Shown: positions 4,280 to 20,133 of the stretch, one piece after another
Position numbering within the stretch: the stretch's first letter is position 1
Layout of the letters: each line of letters begins with the position of its first letter
Origin: Escherichia phage T7
Reading direction: 5' to 3' (one strand)
Sequence record: OL964748.1
DNA: 37,088 nt
Made by a program: the position numbers and the translations under genes
The notes under the pieces: generated by a model
What the model was told of the DNA's origin: nothing
Database searches by the model: none
The model's input: the letters and a program-made list of their open reading frames with translations, nothing else

Positions 4280-4302
4280 CAATACGACTCACTATAGGAG
4301 AA
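4280..4302 (+). promoter_or_regulatory. Single hybrid T7 promoter phi1.1A/phi1.1B (upstream flank of 1.1A, downstream of 1.1B)
   Basis: caatacgactcactataggagaacc lies 8 bp after the gene 1 stop; gene 1 stop to gene 1.1 start is 109 bp instead of 184 bp. Confidence 0.8.
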
Positions 4303-4848: not shown

Positions 4849-5928
4849 ATGATGAACATTAAGACTAACCCGTTTAAAGCCGTGTCTTTCGTAGAGTCTG
4901 CCATTAAGAAGGCTCTGGATAACGCTGGGTATCTTATCGCTGAAATCAAGTACGATGGTGTACGCGGGAACATCTGCGTAGACAATACTGCTAACAGTTA
5001 CTGGCTCTCTCGTGTATCTAAAACGATTCCGGCACTGGAGCACTTAAACGGGTTTGATGTTCGCTGGAAGCGTCTACTGAACGATGACCGTTGCTTCTAC
5101 AAAGATGGCTTTATGCTTGATGGGGAACTCATGGTCAAGGGCGTAGACTTTAACACAGGGTCCGGCCTACTGCGTACCAAATGGACTGACACGAAGAACC
5201 AAGAGTTCCATGAAGAGTTATTCGTTGAACCAATCCGTAAGAAAGATAAAGTTCCCTTTAAGCTGCACACTGGACACCTTCACATAAAACTGTACGCTAT
5301 CCTCCCGCTGCACATCGTGGAGTCTGGAGAAGACTGTGATGTCATGACGTTGCTCATGCAGGAACACGTTAAGAACATGCTGCCTCTGCTACAGGAATAC
5401 TTCCCTGAAATCGAATGGCAAGCGGCTGAATCTTACGAGGTCTACGATATGGTAGAACTACAGCAACTGTACGAGCAGAAGCGAGCAGAAGGCCATGAGG
5501 GTCTCATTGTGAAAGACCCGATGTGTATCTATAAGCGCGGTAAGAAATCTGGCTGGTGGAAAATGAAACCTGAGAACGAAGCTGACGGTATCATTCAGGG
5601 TCTGGTATGGGGTACAAAAGGTCTGGCTAATGAAGGTAAAGTGATTGGTTTTGAGGTGCTTCTTGAGAGTGGTCGTTTAGTTAACGCCACGAATATCTCT
5701 CGCGCCTTAATGGATGAGTTCACTGAGACAGTAAAAGAGGCCACCCTAAGTCAATGGGGATTCTTTAGCCCATACGGTATTGGCGACAACGATGCTTGTA
5801 CTATTAACCCTTACGATGGCTGGGCGTGTCAAATTAGCTACATGGAGGAAACACCTGATGGCTCTTTGCGGCACCCATCGTTCGTAATGTTCCGTGGCAC
5901 CGAGGACAACCCTCAAGAGAAAATGTAA
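4849..5928 (+). CDS. 1.3: ATP-dependent DNA ligase (gene 1.3)
   Basis: 359-aa ORF with the ligase adenylation motif context (IAEIKYDGVRG). Confidence 0.95.
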   Translation: MMNIKTNPFKAVSFVESAIKKALDNAGYLIAEIKYDGVRGNICVDNTANSYWLSRVSKTIPALEHLNGFDVRWKRLLNDDRCFYKDGFMLDGELMVKGVDFNTGSGLLRTKWTDTKNQEFHEELFVEPIRKKDKVPFKLHTGHLHIKLYAILPLHIVESGEDCDVMTLLMQEHVKNMLPLLQEYFPEIEWQAAESYEVYDMVELQQLYEQKRAEGHEGLIVKDPMCIYKRGKKSGWWKMKPENEADGIIQGLVWGTKGLANEGKVIGFEVLLESGRLVNATNISRALMDEFTETVKEATLSQWGFFSPYGIGDNDACTINPYDGWACQISYMEETPDGSLRHPSFVMFRGTEDNPQEKM

Positions 5929-5935
5929 TCACACT

Positions 5936-5967
5936 GGCTCACCTTCGGGTGGGCCTTTCTGCGTTTA
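5936..5967 (+). terminator. Early intrinsic terminator TE (for E. coli RNA polymerase)
   Basis: GC-rich hairpin ggctcacc-ttcg-ggtgggcc followed by tttctgcgttta. Confidence 0.85.
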
Positions 5968-5978
5968 TAAGGAGACAC

Positions 5979-6001
5979 TTTTACGACTCACTAAAGGAGG
6001 T
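5979..6001 (+). promoter_or_regulatory. T7 promoter phi1.5 with altered upstream edge (-16/-15 TT instead of AA)
   Basis: ttttacgactcactaaaggagg; core -14..+6 intact, -17..-15 region formed by the gene 1.4 deletion junction. Confidence 0.7.
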
Positions 6002-6008
6002 ACACACC

Positions 6009-6098
6009 ATGATGTACTTAATGCCATTACTCATCGTCATTGTAGGATGCCTTGCGCTCCACTGTAGCGATGATGATATGCCAGATGGTCACGCTTAA
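6009..6098 (+). CDS. 1.5: gene 1.5 protein (29 aa)
   Basis: MMYLMPLLIVIVGCLALHCSDDDMPDGHA; hand-translated. Confidence 0.75.
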   Translation: MMYLMPLLIVIVGCLALHCSDDDMPDGHA

Positions 6099-6118
6099 TA
6101 CGACTCACTAAAGGAGAC
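6096..6118 (+). promoter_or_regulatory. T7 promoter phi1.6
   Basis: taatacgactcactaaaggagac overlapping the gene 1.5 stop. Confidence 0.85.
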
Positions 6119-6123
6119 ACTAT

Positions 6124-6390
6124 ATGTTTCGACTTCATTACAACAAAAGCGTTAAGAATTTCACGGTTCGCCGTGCTGACCGTTCAATCGTATGTGCGAG
6201 CGAGCGCCGAGCTAAGATACCTCTTATTGGTAACACAGTTCCTTTGGCACCTAGCGTCCACATCATTATCACCCGTTGTGACTTTGAGAAAGCAATAGAC
6301 AAGAAACGTCCGGTTCTTAGTGTGGCAGTGACCCGCTTCCCGTTCGTCCGTCTGTTACTCAAACGAATCAAGGAGGTGTTACACCTGTAA
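6124..6390 (+). CDS. 1.6: gene 1.6 protein with altered C-terminus (ends ...KEVLHL)
   Basis: 88-aa ORF; 3' end and stop codon are created by the 1.6/1.7 junction deletion. Confidence 0.8.
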
Positions 6391-7275: not shown

Positions 7276-7974
7276 ATGGCTAAGAAGATTTTCACCTCTG
7301 CGCTGGGTACCGCTGAACCTTACGCTTACATCGCCAAGCCGGACTACGGCAACGAAGAGCGTGGCTTTGGGAACCCTCGTGGTGTCTATAAAGTTGACCT
7401 GACTATTCCCAACAAAGACCCGCGCTGCCAGCGTATGGTCGATGAAATCGTGAAGTGTCACGAAGAGGCTTATGCTGCTGCCGTTGAGGAATACGAAGCT
7501 AATCCACCTGCTGTAGCTCGTGGTAAGAAACCGCTGAAACCGTATGAGGGTGACATGCCGTTCTTCGATAACGGTGACGGTACGACTACCTTTAAGTTCA
7601 AATGCTACGCGTCTTTCCAAGACAAGAAGACCAAAGAGACCAAGCACATCAATCTTGTTGTGGTTGACTCAAAAGGTAAGAAGATGGAAGACGTTCCGAT
7701 TATCGGTGGTGGCTCTAAGCTGAAAGTTAAATATTCTCTGGTTCCATACAAGTGGAACACTGCTGTAGGTGCGAGCGTTAAGCTGCAACTGGAATCCGTG
7801 ATGCTGGTCGAACTGGCTACCTTTGGTGGCGGTGAAGACGATTGGGCTGACGAAGTTGAAGAGAACGGCTATGTTGCCTCTGGTTCTGCCAAAGCGAGCA
7901 AACCACGCGACGAAGAAAGCTGGGACGAAGACGACGAAGAGTCCGAGGAAGCAGACGAAGACGGAGACTTCTAA
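7276..7974 (+). CDS. 2.5: Single-stranded DNA-binding protein (gene 2.5)
   Basis: 232-aa ORF with acidic C-terminal tail ...DEDDEESEEADEDGDF. Confidence 0.95.
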   Translation: MAKKIFTSALGTAEPYAYIAKPDYGNEERGFGNPRGVYKVDLTIPNKDPRCQRMVDEIVKCHEEAYAAAVEEYEANPPAVARGKKPLKPYEGDMPFFDNGDGTTTFKFKCYASFQDKKTKETKHINLVVVDSKGKKMEDVPIIGGGSKLKVKYSLVPYKWNTAVGASVKLQLESVMLVELATFGGGEDDWADEVEENGYVASGSAKASKPRDEESWDEDDEESEEADEDGDF

Positions 7975-8394
7975 GTGGAACTGCGGGAGAAAATCCTTGA
8001 GCGAATCAAGGTGACTTCCTCTGGGTGTTGGGAGTGGCAGGGCGCTACGAACAATAAAGGGTACGGGCAGGTGTGGTGCAGCAATACCGGAAAGGTTGTC
8101 TACTGTCATCGCGTAATGTCTAATGCTCCGAAAGGTTCTACCGTCCTGCACTCCTGTGATAATCCATTATGTTGTAACCCTGAACACCTATCCATAGGAA
8201 CTCCAAAAGAGAACTCCACTGACATGGTAAATAAGGGTCGCTCACACAAGGGGTATAAACTTTCAGACGAAGACGTAATGGCAATCATGGAGTCCAGCGA
8301 GTCCAATGTATCCTTAGCTCGCACCTATGGTGTCTCCCAACAGACTATTTGTGATATACGCAAAGTGAGGCGACATGGCAGGTTACGGCGCTAA
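7975..8394 (+). CDS. 2.8: gene 2.8 protein, HNH-type endonuclease-like (GTG start)
   Basis: 139-aa ORF with HNH-like motif (CHRVMSNAP...HSCDNPLCCNPEHL); GTG start immediately after the 2.5 stop. Confidence 0.8.
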   Translation: MELREKILERIKVTSSGCWEWQGATNNKGYGQVWCSNTGKVVYCHRVMSNAPKGSTVLHSCDNPLCCNPEHLSIGTPKENSTDMVNKGRSHKGYKLSDEDVMAIMESSESNVSLARTYGVSQQTICDIRKVRRHGRLRR

Positions 8395-9280: not shown

Positions 9281-9303
9281 TAATTGAACTCACTAAAGGG
9301 AGA
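9281..9303 (+). promoter_or_regulatory. T7 promoter phi3.8
   Basis: aattaattgaactcactaaagggaga. Confidence 0.8.
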
Positions 9304-11164: not shown

Positions 11165-11187
11165 TAATACGACTCACTAAAGGCCAC
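11165..11187 (+). promoter_or_regulatory. T7 promoter phi4.3
   Basis: taatacgactcactaaaggcc. Confidence 0.8.
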
Positions 11188-11305
11188 ACAGTCACGCGCT
11201 CTGGCGATTCGCTCCAACGAACTGGCTGACAGTGCATCCACTAAAGTTACCGAGGCTGCCCGTGTGGCAAACCAAGCTCAACAGCTTTCCAAATTCTTTG
11301 AGTAA
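11183..11305 (+). pseudogene. 4.3: 3' remnant of gene 4.3; ribosome-binding site, start codon and 5' coding region missing (100-bp deletion)
   Basis: Gene 4 stop to gene 4.5 start is 100 bp shorter than expected; remaining sequence runs from the promoter straight into ...KFFE-stop (TAA 11303..11305). Confidence 0.6.
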
Positions 11306-11324
11306 TCAAACAGGAGAAACCATT

Positions 11325-11594
11325 ATGTCTAACGTAGCTGAAACTATCCGTCTATCCGATACAGCTGACCAGTGGAACCGTCGAGTCCACATCAACGTTC
11401 GCAACGGTAAGGCGACTATGGTTTACCGCTGGAAGGACTCTAAGTCCTCTAAGAATCACACTCAGCGTATGACGTTGACAGATGAGCAAGCACTGCGTCT
11501 GGTCAATGCGCTTACCAAAGCTGCCGTGACAGCAATTCATGAAGCTGGTCGCGTCAATGAAGCTATGGCTATCCTCGACAAGATTGATAACTAA
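11325..11594 (+). CDS. 4.5: gene 4.5 protein (89 aa)
   Basis: MSNVAETIRLSDTADQWNRRVHINVRNGKATMVYRWKD...; the track ORF 11232..11594 is an upstream extension. Confidence 0.85.
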   Translation: MSNVAETIRLSDTADQWNRRVHINVRNGKATMVYRWKDSKSSKNHTQRMTLTDEQALRLVNALTKAAVTAIHEAGRVNEAMAILDKIDN

Positions 11595-11638: not shown

Positions 11639-11661
11639 CTATTCAACTCACTATAGGAGAT
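11639..11661 (+). promoter_or_regulatory. T7 promoter phi4.7
   Basis: ctattcaactcactataggagat. Confidence 0.8.
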
Positions 11662-11993: not shown

Positions 11994-14108
11994 ATGATCG
12001 TTTCTGACATCGAAGCTAACGCCCTCTTAGAGAGCGTCACTAAGTTCCACTGCGGGGTTATCTACGACTACTCCACCGCTGAGTACGTAAGCTACCGTCC
12101 GAGTGACTTCGGTGCGTATCTGGATGCGCTGGAAGCCGAGGTTGCACGAGGCGGTCTTATTGTGTTCCACAACGGTCACAAGTATGACGTTCCTGCATTG
12201 ACCAAACTGGCAAAGTTGCAATTGAACCGAGAGTTCCACCTTCCTCGTGAGAACTGTATTGACACCCTTGTGTTGTCACGTTTGATTCATTCCAACCTCA
12301 AGGACACCGATATGGGTCTTCTGCGTTCCGGCAAGTTGCCCGGAAAACGCTTTGGGTCTCACGCTTTGGAGGCGTGGGGTTATCGCTTAGGCGAGATGAA
12401 GGGTGAATACAAAGACGACTTTAAGCGTATGCTTGAAGAGCAGGGTGAAGAATACGTTGACGGAATGGAGTGGTGGAACTTCAACGAAGAGATGATGGAC
12501 TATAACGTTCAGGACGTTGTGGTAACTAAAGCTCTCCTTGAGAAGCTACTCTCTGACAAACATTACTTCCCTCCTGAGATTGACTTTACGGACGTAGGAT
12601 ACACTACGTTCTGGTCAGAATCCCTTGAGGCCGTTGACATTGAACATCGTGCTGCATGGCTGCTCGCTAAACAAGAGCGCAACGGGTTCCCGTTTGACAC
12701 AAAAGCAATCGAAGAGTTGTACGTAGAGTTAGCTGCTCGCCGCTCTGAGTTGCTCCGTAAATTGACCGAAACGTTCGGCTCGTGGTATCAGCCTAAAGGT
12801 GGCACTGAGATGTTCTGCCATCCGCGAACAGGTAAGCCACTACCTAAATACCCTCGCATTAAGACACCTAAAGTTGGTGGTATCTTTAAGAAGCCTAAGA
12901 ACAAGGCACAGCGAGAAGGCCGTGAGCCTTGCGAACTTGATACCCGCGAGTACGTTGCTGGTGCTCCTTACACCCCAGTTGAACATGTTGTGTTTAACCC
13001 TTCGTCTCGTGACCACATTCAGAAGAAACTCCAAGAGGCTGGGTGGGTCCCGACCAAGTACACCGATAAGGGTGCTCCTGTGGTGGACGATGAGGTACTC
13101 GAAGGAGTACGTGTAGATGACCCTGAGAAGCAAGCCGCTATCGACCTCATTAAAGAGTACTTGATGATTCAGAAGCGAATCGGACAGTCTGCTGAGGGAG
13201 ACAAAGCATGGCTTCGTTATGTTGCTGAGGATGGTAAGATTCATGGTTCTGTTAACCCTAATGGAGCAGTTACGGGTCGTGCGACCCATGCGTTCCCAAA
13301 CCTTGCGCAAATTCCGGGTGTACGTTCTCCTTATGGAGAGCAGTGTCGCGCTGCTTTTGGCGCTGAGCACCATTTGGATGGGATAACTGGTAAGCCTTGG
13401 GTTCAGGCTGGCATCGACGCATCCGGTCTTGAGCTACGCTGCTTGGCTCACTTCATGGCTCGCTTTGATAACGGCGAGTACGCTCACGAGATTCTTAACG
13501 GCGACATCCACACTAAGAACCAGATAGCTGCTGAACTACCTACCCGAGATAACGCTAAGACGTTCATCTATGGGTTCCTCTATGGTGCTGGTGATGAGAA
13601 GATTGGACAGATTGTTGGTGCTGGTAAAGAGCGCGGTAAGGAACTCAAGAAGAAATTCCTTGAGAACACCCCCGCGATTGCAGCACTCCGCGAGTCTATC
13701 CAACAGACACTTGTCGAGTCCTCTCAATGGGTAGCTGGTGAGCAACAAGTCAAGTGGAAACGCCGCTGGATTAAAGGTCTGGATGGTCGTAAGGTACACG
13801 TTCGTAGTCCTCACGCTGCCTTGAATACCCTACTGCAATCTGCTGGTGCTCTCATCTGCAAACTGTGGATTATCAAGACCGAAGAGATGCTCGTAGAGAA
13901 AGGCTTGAAGCATGGCTGGGATGGGGACTTTGCGTACATGGCATGGGTACATGATGAAATCCAAGTAGGCTGCCGTACCGAAGAGATTGCTCAGGTGGTC
14001 ATTGAGACCGCACAAGAAGCGATGCGCTGGGTTGGAGACCACTGGAACTTCCGGTGTCTTCTGGATACCGAAGGTAAGATGGGTCCTAATTGGGCGATTT
14101 GCCACTGA
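11994..14108 (+). CDS. 5: DNA polymerase (gene 5), family A polymerase with 3'-5' exonuclease
   Basis: 704-aa [42 protein letters not shown]... Confidence 0.98.
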
Positions 14109-14123
14109 TACAGGAGGCTACTC

Positions 14124-14480
14124 ATGAACGAAAGACACTTAACAGGTGCTGCTTCTGAAATGCTAGTAGCCTACAAATTTACCAAAGCTGGGTACACTGT
14201 CTATTACCCTATGCTGACTCAGAGTAAAGAGGACTTGGTTGTATGTAAGGATGGTAAATTTAGTAAGGTTCAGGTTAAAACAGCCACAACGGTTCAAACC
14301 AACACAGGAGATGCCAAGCAGGTTAGGCTAGGTGGATGCGGTAGGTCCGAATATAAGGATGGAGACTTTGACATTCTTGCGGTTGTGGTTGACGAAGATG
14401 TGCTTATTTTCACATGGGACGAAGTAAAAGGTAAGACATCCATGTGTGTCGGCAAGAGAAACAAAGGCATAAAACTATAG
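14124..14480 (+). CDS. 5.3: gene 5.3 protein
   Basis: 118-aa ORF at the canonical position after gene 5. Confidence 0.85.
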   Translation: MNERHLTGAASEMLVAYKFTKAGYTVYYPMLTQSKEDLVVCKDGKFSKVQVKTATTVQTNTGDAKQVRLGGCGRSEYKDGDFDILAVVVDEDVLIFTWDEVKGKTSMCVGKRNKGIKL

Positions 14481-17175: not shown

Positions 17176-17463
17176 ATGGGTAAGAAAGTTAAGAAGGCCG
17201 TGAAGAAAGTCACCAAGTCCGTTAAGGAAGGGGCTCGTCCGGTTAAACAGGTTGCTGGCGGTCTAGCTGGTCTGGCTGGTGGTACTGGTGAAGCACAGAT
17301 GGTGGAAGTACCACAAGCTGCCGCACAGATTGTTGACGTACCTGAGAAAGAGGTTTCCACTGAGGACGAAGCACAGACAGAAAGCGGACGCAAGAAAGCT
17401 CGTGCTGGCGGTAAGAAATCCTTGAGTGTAGCCCGTAGCTCCGGTGGCGGTATCAACATTTAA
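17176..17463 (+). CDS. 7.3: gene 7.3 protein (tail-associated), 95 aa (about 4 residues shorter than the reference as I recall it)
   Basis: MGKKVKKAVKKVTKSVKEGARPVKQVAGGLAGLAGG... Confidence 0.8.
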   Translation: MGKKVKKAVKKVTKSVKEGARPVKQVAGGLAGLAGGTGEAQMVEVPQAAAQIVDVPEKEVSTEDEAQTESGRKKARAGGKKSLSVARSSGGGINI

Positions 17464-19209: not shown

Positions 19210-20133
19210 ATGGCTGAATCTAATGCAGACGTATATGCATCTTTTGGCGTGAACTCCGCTGTGATGTCTGGTGGTTCCGTTGAGGAACATGAGCAGAACA
19301 TGCTGGCTCTTGATGTTGCTGCCCGTGATGGCGATGATGCAATCGAGTTAGCGTCAGACGAAGTGGAAACAGAACGTGACCTGTATGACAACTCTGACCC
19401 GTTCGGTCAAGAGGATGACGAAGGCCGCATTCAGGTTCGTATCGGTGATGGCTCTGAGCCGACCGATGTGGACACTGGAGAAGAAGGCGTTGAGGGCACC
19501 GAAGGTTCCGAAGAGTTTACCCCACTGGGCGAGACTCCAGAAGAACTGGTAGCTGCCTCTGAGCAACTTGGTGAGCACGAAGAGGGCTTCCAAGAGATGA
19601 TTAACATTGCTGCTGAGCGTGGCATGAGTGTCGAGACCATTGAGGCTATCCAGCGTGAGTACGAGGAGAACGAAGAGTTGTCCGCCGAGTCCTACGCTAA
19701 GCTGGCTGAAATTGGCTACACGAAGGCTTTCATTGACTCGTATATCCGTGGTCAAGAAGCTCTGGTGGAGCAGTACGTAAACAGTGTCATTGAGTACGCT
19801 GGTGGTCGTGAACGTTTTGATGCACTGTATAACCACCTTGAGACGCACAACCCTGAGGCTGCACAGTCGCTGGATAATGCGTTGACCAATCGTGACTTAG
19901 CGACCGTTAAGGCTATCATCAACTTGGCTGGTGAGTCTCGCGCTAAGGCGTTCGGTCGTAAGCCAACTCGTAGTGTGACTAATCGTGCTATTCCGGCTAA
20001 ACCTCAGGCTACCAAGCGTGAAGGCTTTGCGGACCGTAGCGAGATGATTAAAGCTATGAGTGACCCTCGGTATCGCACAGATGCCAACTATCGTCGTCAA
20101 GTCGAACAGAAAGTAATCGATTCGAACTTCTGA
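19210..20133 (+). CDS. 9: Capsid assembly (scaffolding) protein (gene 9)
   Basis: 307-aa acidic ORF MAESNADVYASFGVNSAVMSGGSVEEHEQNMLALD... Confidence 0.95.
   Translation: MAESNADVYASFGVNSAVMSGGSVEEHEQNMLALDVAARDGDDAIELASDEVETERDLYDNSDPFGQEDDEGRIQVRIGDGSEPTDVDTGEEGVEGTEGSEEFTPLGETPEELVAASEQLGEHEEGFQEMINIAAERGMSVETIEAIQREYEENEELSAESYAKLAEIGYTKAFIDSYIRGQEALVEQYVNSVIEYAGGRERFDALYNHLETHNPEAAQSLDNALTNRDLATVKAIINLAGESRAKAFGRKPTRSVTNRAIPAKPQATKREGFADRSEMIKAMSDPRYRTDANYRRQVEQKVIDSNF

Follow-up and report, generated by a model that had tools for sequence, protein, structure and literature searches.

The window, by which we mean the whole stretch of 37,088 bp that was analysed, lacks gene 1.4 of phage T7 from start codon to stop codon, and the upstream edge of promoter phi1.5 is altered at the site of the loss. 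It is very likely that gene 1.4 was cut from start to stop by a Cas9/template design of the CiPGr type, that phi1.5 was clipped by this design and that the promoter is moderately weakened. The deletion, its limits, the promoter change and the identity of the junction with that of deposited mutants could be read directly in this analysis. The deletion is already known, being part of a published and deposited mutant series. As a man-made deletion in a published genome-reduced T7 series it carries little biological weight, and it marks the window as an engineered genome.

Extent of the gene 1.4 deletion

Alignment of window positions 5900-6130 with wild-type T7 (NC_001604) revealed a single gap of exactly 156 bp, which confirms the statement of the preliminary description that gene 1.4 is missing over this length. 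The absent bases are wild-type (WT) positions 7608-7763, that is, the annotated gene 1.4 coding sequence from ATG through TAA, and the ends proposed earlier thus match the annotated ones. The junction lies at 5981..5982 (plus strand), where AAGGAGACACTTT is joined to TACGACTCACTAAAGGAGG; in the wild type, the same site reads CACTTT, then ATGTTTAAG...AACTGG, then TAA, then TACGACTC, and the absent part runs from ATGTTTAAG to AACTGGTAA. The position of the gap is unique, as it can slide 0 bp to the left or right, and hence there is no microhomology. Between the window and the reference, no substitution is found within approximately 270 bp of the junction.

Upstream of the junction, the terminator TE for E. 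coli RNA polymerase (5936..5968, plus strand) is the same as in the wild type around the annotated TE site at 7588. It consists of a hairpin (5936-5955) with an 8-bp stem and a UUCG loop, folding at -15.4 kcal/mol, followed by a T-rich tail (5956-5968); a generic terminator scan did not call it, the tail having too few T. About 11 bp separate the end of the T-tract from position -17 of phi1.5, which is the spacing between TE and phi1.5 that had been described for this site, and the reference does place gene 1.4 between TE and phi1.5 with its stop codon inside the promoter. The leader of gene 1.4 remains as an orphan (5969..5981, plus strand) in the alignment, comprising the Shine-Dalgarno sequence AAGGAG (5969-5974) and the spacer ACACTTT, while the start codon is gone. 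In a scan of the junction, no new sigma-70-like promoter was seen, and the sole new open reading frame (ORF) there is an in-frame GTG extension of gene 1.5 without a ribosome-binding site.

The lost product, gp1.4, is a hydrophobic protein of 51 residues (Pfam DUF5464, phrog_17655) and was detected by tblastn in only 46 phage records. A literature search on the function of gene 1.4 gave nothing useful, and the PhageMaP preprint held nothing on this gene.

Altered upstream edge of phi1.5

With the phi1.5 start annotated at 7778 in the wild type, the gene 1.4 TAA (7761-7763) falls at -17 to -15 of the promoter, as the preliminary description had stated. In the window, phi1.5 (-17 to +6, 5979..6001, plus strand, with +1 at G5996) reads TTTTACGACTCACTAAAGGAGGT, in which TTTTA replaces TAATA at -17 to -13. 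The altered sequence, TTTTACGACTCACTAAAGGAGG, carries A-to-T changes at -16 and at -15, and the letters of the window therefore agree with the TT for AA reported before; position -17 stays T by coincidence. On the other hand, the stretch from -14 to +6 is the same as in the wild type, the core from -12 to +2 agrees with CGACTCACTATAGG, and +1 is 13 bp ahead of the gene 1.5 ATG. Although the consensus TAATA at -17 to -13 is lost from phi1.5 of the window, TTTTA is still A/T at all five positions, because the three bases just ahead of the gene 1.4 ATG are, by chance, TTT.

Comparison with the natural T7 promoters places this edge in context. All 17 have A at -15 and 16 of them have A at -16, phi4.7 (CTATT...) having T at the latter position. 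As T at -15 is absent from the 17 natural promoters, phi1.5 of the window lies outside natural variation at -15. Downstream, gene 1.5 (6009..6098, plus strand; 29 aa; phrog_12128, E = 9.6e-23) is intact, and its TAA forms -17 to -15 of phi1.6. The latter promoter (6096..6118, plus strand) is unaltered, reads TAATACGACTCACTAAAGGAGAC, lies 117 bp downstream of phi1.5 and provides redundancy for genes 1.6 onward.

Origin of the deletion

A 48-bp probe with the junction at its centre, either side being too short to seed a match to the wild type, was matched at 100% in 63 phage records, all of them T7 and belonging to the MZ3752xx and OL9647xx series. The titles of the junction records examined are 'Mutant Escherichia phage T7 clone' T7_1t2, T7_260L, T7_270S and T7_290S, and accession numbers next to these belong to 'Mutant Salmonella phage seszw' clones, seszw being a phage also used in Yuan et al. 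2022. Outside the mutant series, the AAGGAGACACTTTTACGACTC junction was found in no record of the phage collection searched. Both T7 and seszw, along with names for clones in the T7_300L style, appear in Yuan et al. 2022 (PMC9825161; Nucleic Acids Res 50:13183), which, in the part consulted, presents a CRISPR/Cas9 genome reduction. According to the same part of that paper, two kinds of template were made for each targeted gene, 'cassette-gene' for the entire gene and 'cassette-100' for 100 bp, with 50-bp homology arms, and the fittest T7 isolate, T7_100_t2, was 7.1% shorter and 0.9 doublings per hour less fit than the wild type.

The window as a whole is 7.13% shorter than NC_001604 (37,088 bp versus 39,937 bp), and whole-length comparison with the wild type shows that, besides a rearranged left end and 34 substitutions, it carries ten deletions and an in-frame one of 12 bp, while a 2-kb stretch around the gene 1.4 site is 99.9-100% identical to Escherichia phage T7. 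Whole-gene deletions (1.4 and 7.7, the latter beginning at the GTG start codon of its gene) are found in this one genome together with four others, each of exactly 100 bp (WT 8163-8262, 13340-13439, 14172-14271 and 39565-39664).

From these data we infer a Cas9/template mechanism at the gene 1.4 junction. Cas9 would have cut within gene 1.4, and a plasmid template of the 'cassette-gene' kind, with two 50-bp arms abutting the annotated start and stop codons, would have repaired the break and thereby taken out WT 7608-7763 exactly. The TAA of TAATACGACTC is also the gene 1.4 stop, and a design led by the annotation would have swapped phi1.5 positions -16 and -15 for the TT that precedes the ATG, leaving the promoter core (-14 to +6), TE, gene 1.5 and phi1.6 untouched. 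As the element from -17 to -13 would still be all A/T (TTTTA), a moderate loss of phi1.5 activity, about two- to four-fold in vitro, would be expected. The tie between the junction and one specific cassette is circumstantial.

Some features of the published design count against this explanation. The authors state, in the part of PMC9825161 consulted, that 'likely regulatory elements' were avoided, yet the gene 1.4 design touches a promoter. In addition, the cassette-gene and cassette-100 libraries are described there as separate, whereas the window combines both types of deletion; mixed populations, cross-contamination of the libraries or a special design for short genes are possible reasons for this co-occurrence. 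As far as the consulted portion of its main text goes, PMC9825161 does not name gene 1.4, does not mention phage promoters and does not discuss promoter clipping.

The excision had earlier been judged so clean that it looked designed, and this judgement is borne out by the lack of microhomology, the 63 mutant records and the fit to the published whole-gene design. A spontaneous deletion, whether mediated by repeats or arising as a CRISPR escape, would have to hit both limits of gene 1.4 by accident, which we regard as very improbable. Repeat-flanked deletions do occur in the same genome (WT 541-644 with 9 bp, 1244-2723 with 13 bp, 5832-5906 with a 17-bp promoter repeat and 11177-11453 with 9 bp), and undesigned losses are reported in the part of PMC9825161 consulted. 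At the gene 1.4 junction, however, the repeat is 0 bp long and the gap opens with the A of the ATG and closes with the final A of the TAA, and the presence of the same junction in 63 records also speaks against a spontaneous loss. This candidate was rejected on the contrast between the repeat-free junction and the repeats of 9-17 bp at the four other deletions.

It is scarcely conceivable that the absence of gene 1.4 reflects a natural allele which came into the window by descent or recombination from a relative of T7, for instance 13a or phiA1122. In favour of such an origin, both of these phages are without the gene and have phi1.5 within about 10 bp of TE, and tblastn detected gp1.4 in no more than the 46 phage records mentioned above. 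In 13a and phiA1122, the TE tail GCGTTTA runs directly into ATACGACTC, TAATA is intact and there is no orphan ribosome-binding site. The window, in contrast, retains an additional 13 bp (TAAGGAGACACTT) and shows TTTT at the promoter edge; its flanks match T7 at 100%, but several bases close by are different in 13a and phiA1122. The 13 extra bp and the TTTT edge, in place of a TE tail joined to intact TAATACGACTC, led to the rejection of an allele of this type.

Predicted strength of the clipped promoter

The contact between the loop of T7 RNA polymerase and the promoter at -17 to -13 is made in the minor groove. The loop in question is the AT-rich recognition loop, whose contact with -17 to -13 is summarised in the consulted part of a preprint. 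In vitro promoter values were taken from the part of S2 File of Komura et al. 2018 that was used here, in which the consensus has a mean of 169. In these data, -2A, the natural state of phi1.5, has a relative activity of 0.88; -16T and -15T have values of 114.5 and 115.7, respectively, each corresponding to a relative activity of 0.68; and the relative activity drops to 0.14 for -16G, 0.08 for -16C, and 0.04 for both -15C and -15G. In other sequence backgrounds of the same set, -16T ranges from 0.47 to 0.77 and -15T from 0.31 to 0.60.

Multiplying the single effects of -16T and -15T computed from these values gives 0.39-0.46. For the TT double change, the measured variant TTTTGCGACTCACTAAAGG (TTTTGCG...AAAGG) leads indirectly to a value of 0.25; all of these figures derive from single-barcode in vitro measurements with another initially transcribed sequence. 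The -16T/-15T double variant, also on the phi1.5 background, was not in the part of the Komura et al. 2018 set examined. In the consulted part of a preprint, replacement of TAATA by TATAT had little effect and CGCGG nearly abolished activity, which implies that A/T composition outweighs the exact sequence. Taken together, these values lead us to infer that the clipped phi1.5 would be two- to four-fold weaker in vitro and not inactive. The weakening that had been suspected is therefore plausible, and it is probably modest in size.

The phenotype of the edge change is likewise expected to be small, because phi1.6, 117 bp downstream, is intact and the upstream T7 promoters probably read through. 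T7 RNA polymerase starting from phi1.1 and phi1.3 passes through TE, and there are therefore other sources of transcript for gene 1.5 and the genes downstream. The junction is unchanged in clones sampled across the whole transfer series. In the late clones T7_260L, T7_270S and T7_290S, a further 117 bp have been lost by recombination between phi1.5 and phi1.6, and gene 1.5 is gone; the fusion is seen at 640-770 of MZ375283.1 and also in the two other late clones. The hybrid promoter of these three clones has the TTTT edge and is the only promoter directly before gene 1.6, and the clones are viable. The viable fusion clones and the persistent junction argue against a severe defect; persistence of the junction is not proof of neutrality, because Cas9 selects for the deletion.

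A designed deletion in which the clipped phi1.5 is functionally important, with class II transcription of genes 1.5-1.8 substantially lowered or replication affected and a measurable share in the fitness loss of the mutants, is also to be considered, and we hold it to be unlikely. The near-invariant A at -15 (17 of 17) and -16 (16 of 17) of the natural promoters would fit such a role, as would the 7- to 25-fold loss of activity with G or C at -16 or -15 and the single indirect estimate of 0.25 for the double change, both from the part of the promoter data used here; T7_100_t2, at 0.9 doublings per hour below the wild type in the consulted part of PMC9825161, did lose fitness. On the other hand, a single A-to-T change keeps about 68% of activity in the same data, A/T content outweighs exact sequence according to the preprint, and the fitness loss could stem from many other lesions in the mutants. 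The intact phi1.6, the read-through of TE by T7 RNA polymerase, the maintenance of the junction through the transfer series and the retention of the TTTT edge even after the fusion with phi1.6 all speak against an important role. A designed deletion with a moderately weakened phi1.5 is the preferred reading.

The overlap between stop codon and promoter is not peculiar to phi1.5. Genome-wide in NC_001604, 7 of the 17 T7 promoters have the TAA of the gene upstream as their positions -17 to -15, namely, at 1.2/phi1.3, 1.4/phi1.5, 1.5/phi1.6, 2/phi2.5, 4.2/phi4.3, 8/phi9 and 16/phi17. In view of these shared TAA codons, removing an ORF together with its start and stop codons is not neutral for regulation in T7. 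Start-to-stop deletion designs in this phage carry a general hazard of clipping the next promoter, and the fitness costs of such deletions can combine gene loss with promoter damage. A broader proposition, that start-to-stop designs systematically harm T7 promoters and that part of the fitness cost blamed on gene loss is regulatory damage, seems doubtful to us. If it were true, the clipped phi1.5 would be measurably weaker, and in the phi1.6-fusion clones such a promoter would be the sole one just upstream of genes 1.6-1.8.

Other lesions of the genome

Several other promoters of the window are affected. At 4280-4302, phi1.1A and phi1.1B, which belong to the primary replication origin, are fused to a hybrid, CAATACGACTCACTATAGGAGAA, by a 75-bp deletion (WT 5832-5906) over a 17-bp repeat; the fusion junction was found in no phage record of the collection searched. 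At 11165-11187, a 100-bp deletion (WT 13340-13439) starts from the +1 region of phi4.3, so that the promoter reads TAATACGACTCACTAAAGGCCAC, its initially transcribed sequence is altered, and the ribosome-binding site and start codon of gene 4.3 are lost. In phi4.7 (CTATTCAACTCACTATAGGAGAT), a G-to-A substitution at 11645 affects position -11, a specificity-loop contact; the natural phiOL also has A there. At 9281-9303, phi3.8 is kept and joined inside gene 3.8 by a 277-bp deletion (WT 11177-11453) over the 9-bp repeat AAAGGGAGA, which looks like a spontaneous or CRISPR-escape event and not a designed one.

The left end is rearranged in several ways. Within positions 1-600, the terminal repeat has lost 8 bp near position 70, one more short repeat unit is present near 185-215, and about three tandem copies of the approximately 22-bp sequence TAATCATTGTCTTTATTAATACAA lie at about 362-425, just upstream of phiOL. 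A 104-bp deletion over a 9-bp repeat takes out the region of the E. coli promoter A2. At 1173-1185, a 1,480-bp deletion (WT 1244-2723) over the 13-bp repeat AGGAAGTCGAGGA runs from the end of gene 0.3 to early gene 0.7; this is a classic repeat-mediated deletion of the early region, and an undesigned loss of gp0.3-0.6 is mentioned in the consulted part of PMC9825161. The deletions of WT 541-644, 1244-2723, 5832-5906 and 11177-11453, which have direct repeats of 9-17 bp, look spontaneous.

Two further lesions lie within genes. At 6380-6381, an exact 100-bp deletion (WT 8163-8262) extends across the stop codon of gene 1.6 and the start of gene 1.7. The ORF of gene 1.6 now runs to 6390 and encodes 88 aa, versus 86, with a changed C-terminus, and gene 1.7 is left without its start. 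The 12-bp in-frame deletion falls in gene 7.3 at 17219-17227 (approximately WT 19586-19597) and is flanked by the short direct repeats GTTAAG.

Comparison with known systems

The closest record to the window is OL964749.1 (T7_1t2), with 99.9% identity, the same other deletions and two indel differences. The window has the phi1.1A/phi1.1B fusion and retains 100 bp of gene 5.3, both of which are lacking in T7_1t2. The window is a sibling clone of OL964749.1 and agrees completely with no record of the collection searched. With the CiPGr mutants in general (MZ375237-MZ375294 and OL964739-OL964750), the gene 1.4 junction is identical over 48 bp, and the deletion types of the window fit their cassette-gene and cassette-100 designs. 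With respect to promoter strength, the Komura et al. 2018 variants, in the part of the set used here, place the -16T and -15T singles at about 0.68 of consensus, and -16T is natural in phi4.7.

Phage 13a (EU734174) and Yersinia phage phiA1122 (AY247822) share the order of TE, phi1.5, gene 1.5 and phi1.6 with the window and likewise have no gene 1.4. Their junction, GCGTTTAATACGACTC, has the consensus TAATA, whereas the window keeps a 13-bp leader and has TTTTA. Relative to 13a (285-385) and phiA1122 (215-320), gene 1.4 of T7 and its ribosome-binding site form a 169-bp insertion between the TE tail and TAATA. The leftover 13-bp leader and the TTTT edge of the window are as expected from an annotation-guided start-to-stop excision.

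That the stop codon of gene 1.4 lies within phi1.5 had been recognised before, as the design of T7.1 shows (Chan, Kosuri and Endy 2005; DQ100054). According to its GenBank record, T7.1 was likewise engineered around this overlap. T7.1 keeps gene 1.4 and doubles GTTAACTGGTAA, which parts the gene from the phi1.5 element with both left as they were and preserves the native upstream edge of the promoter, whereas the CiPGr design dropped the shared TAA.
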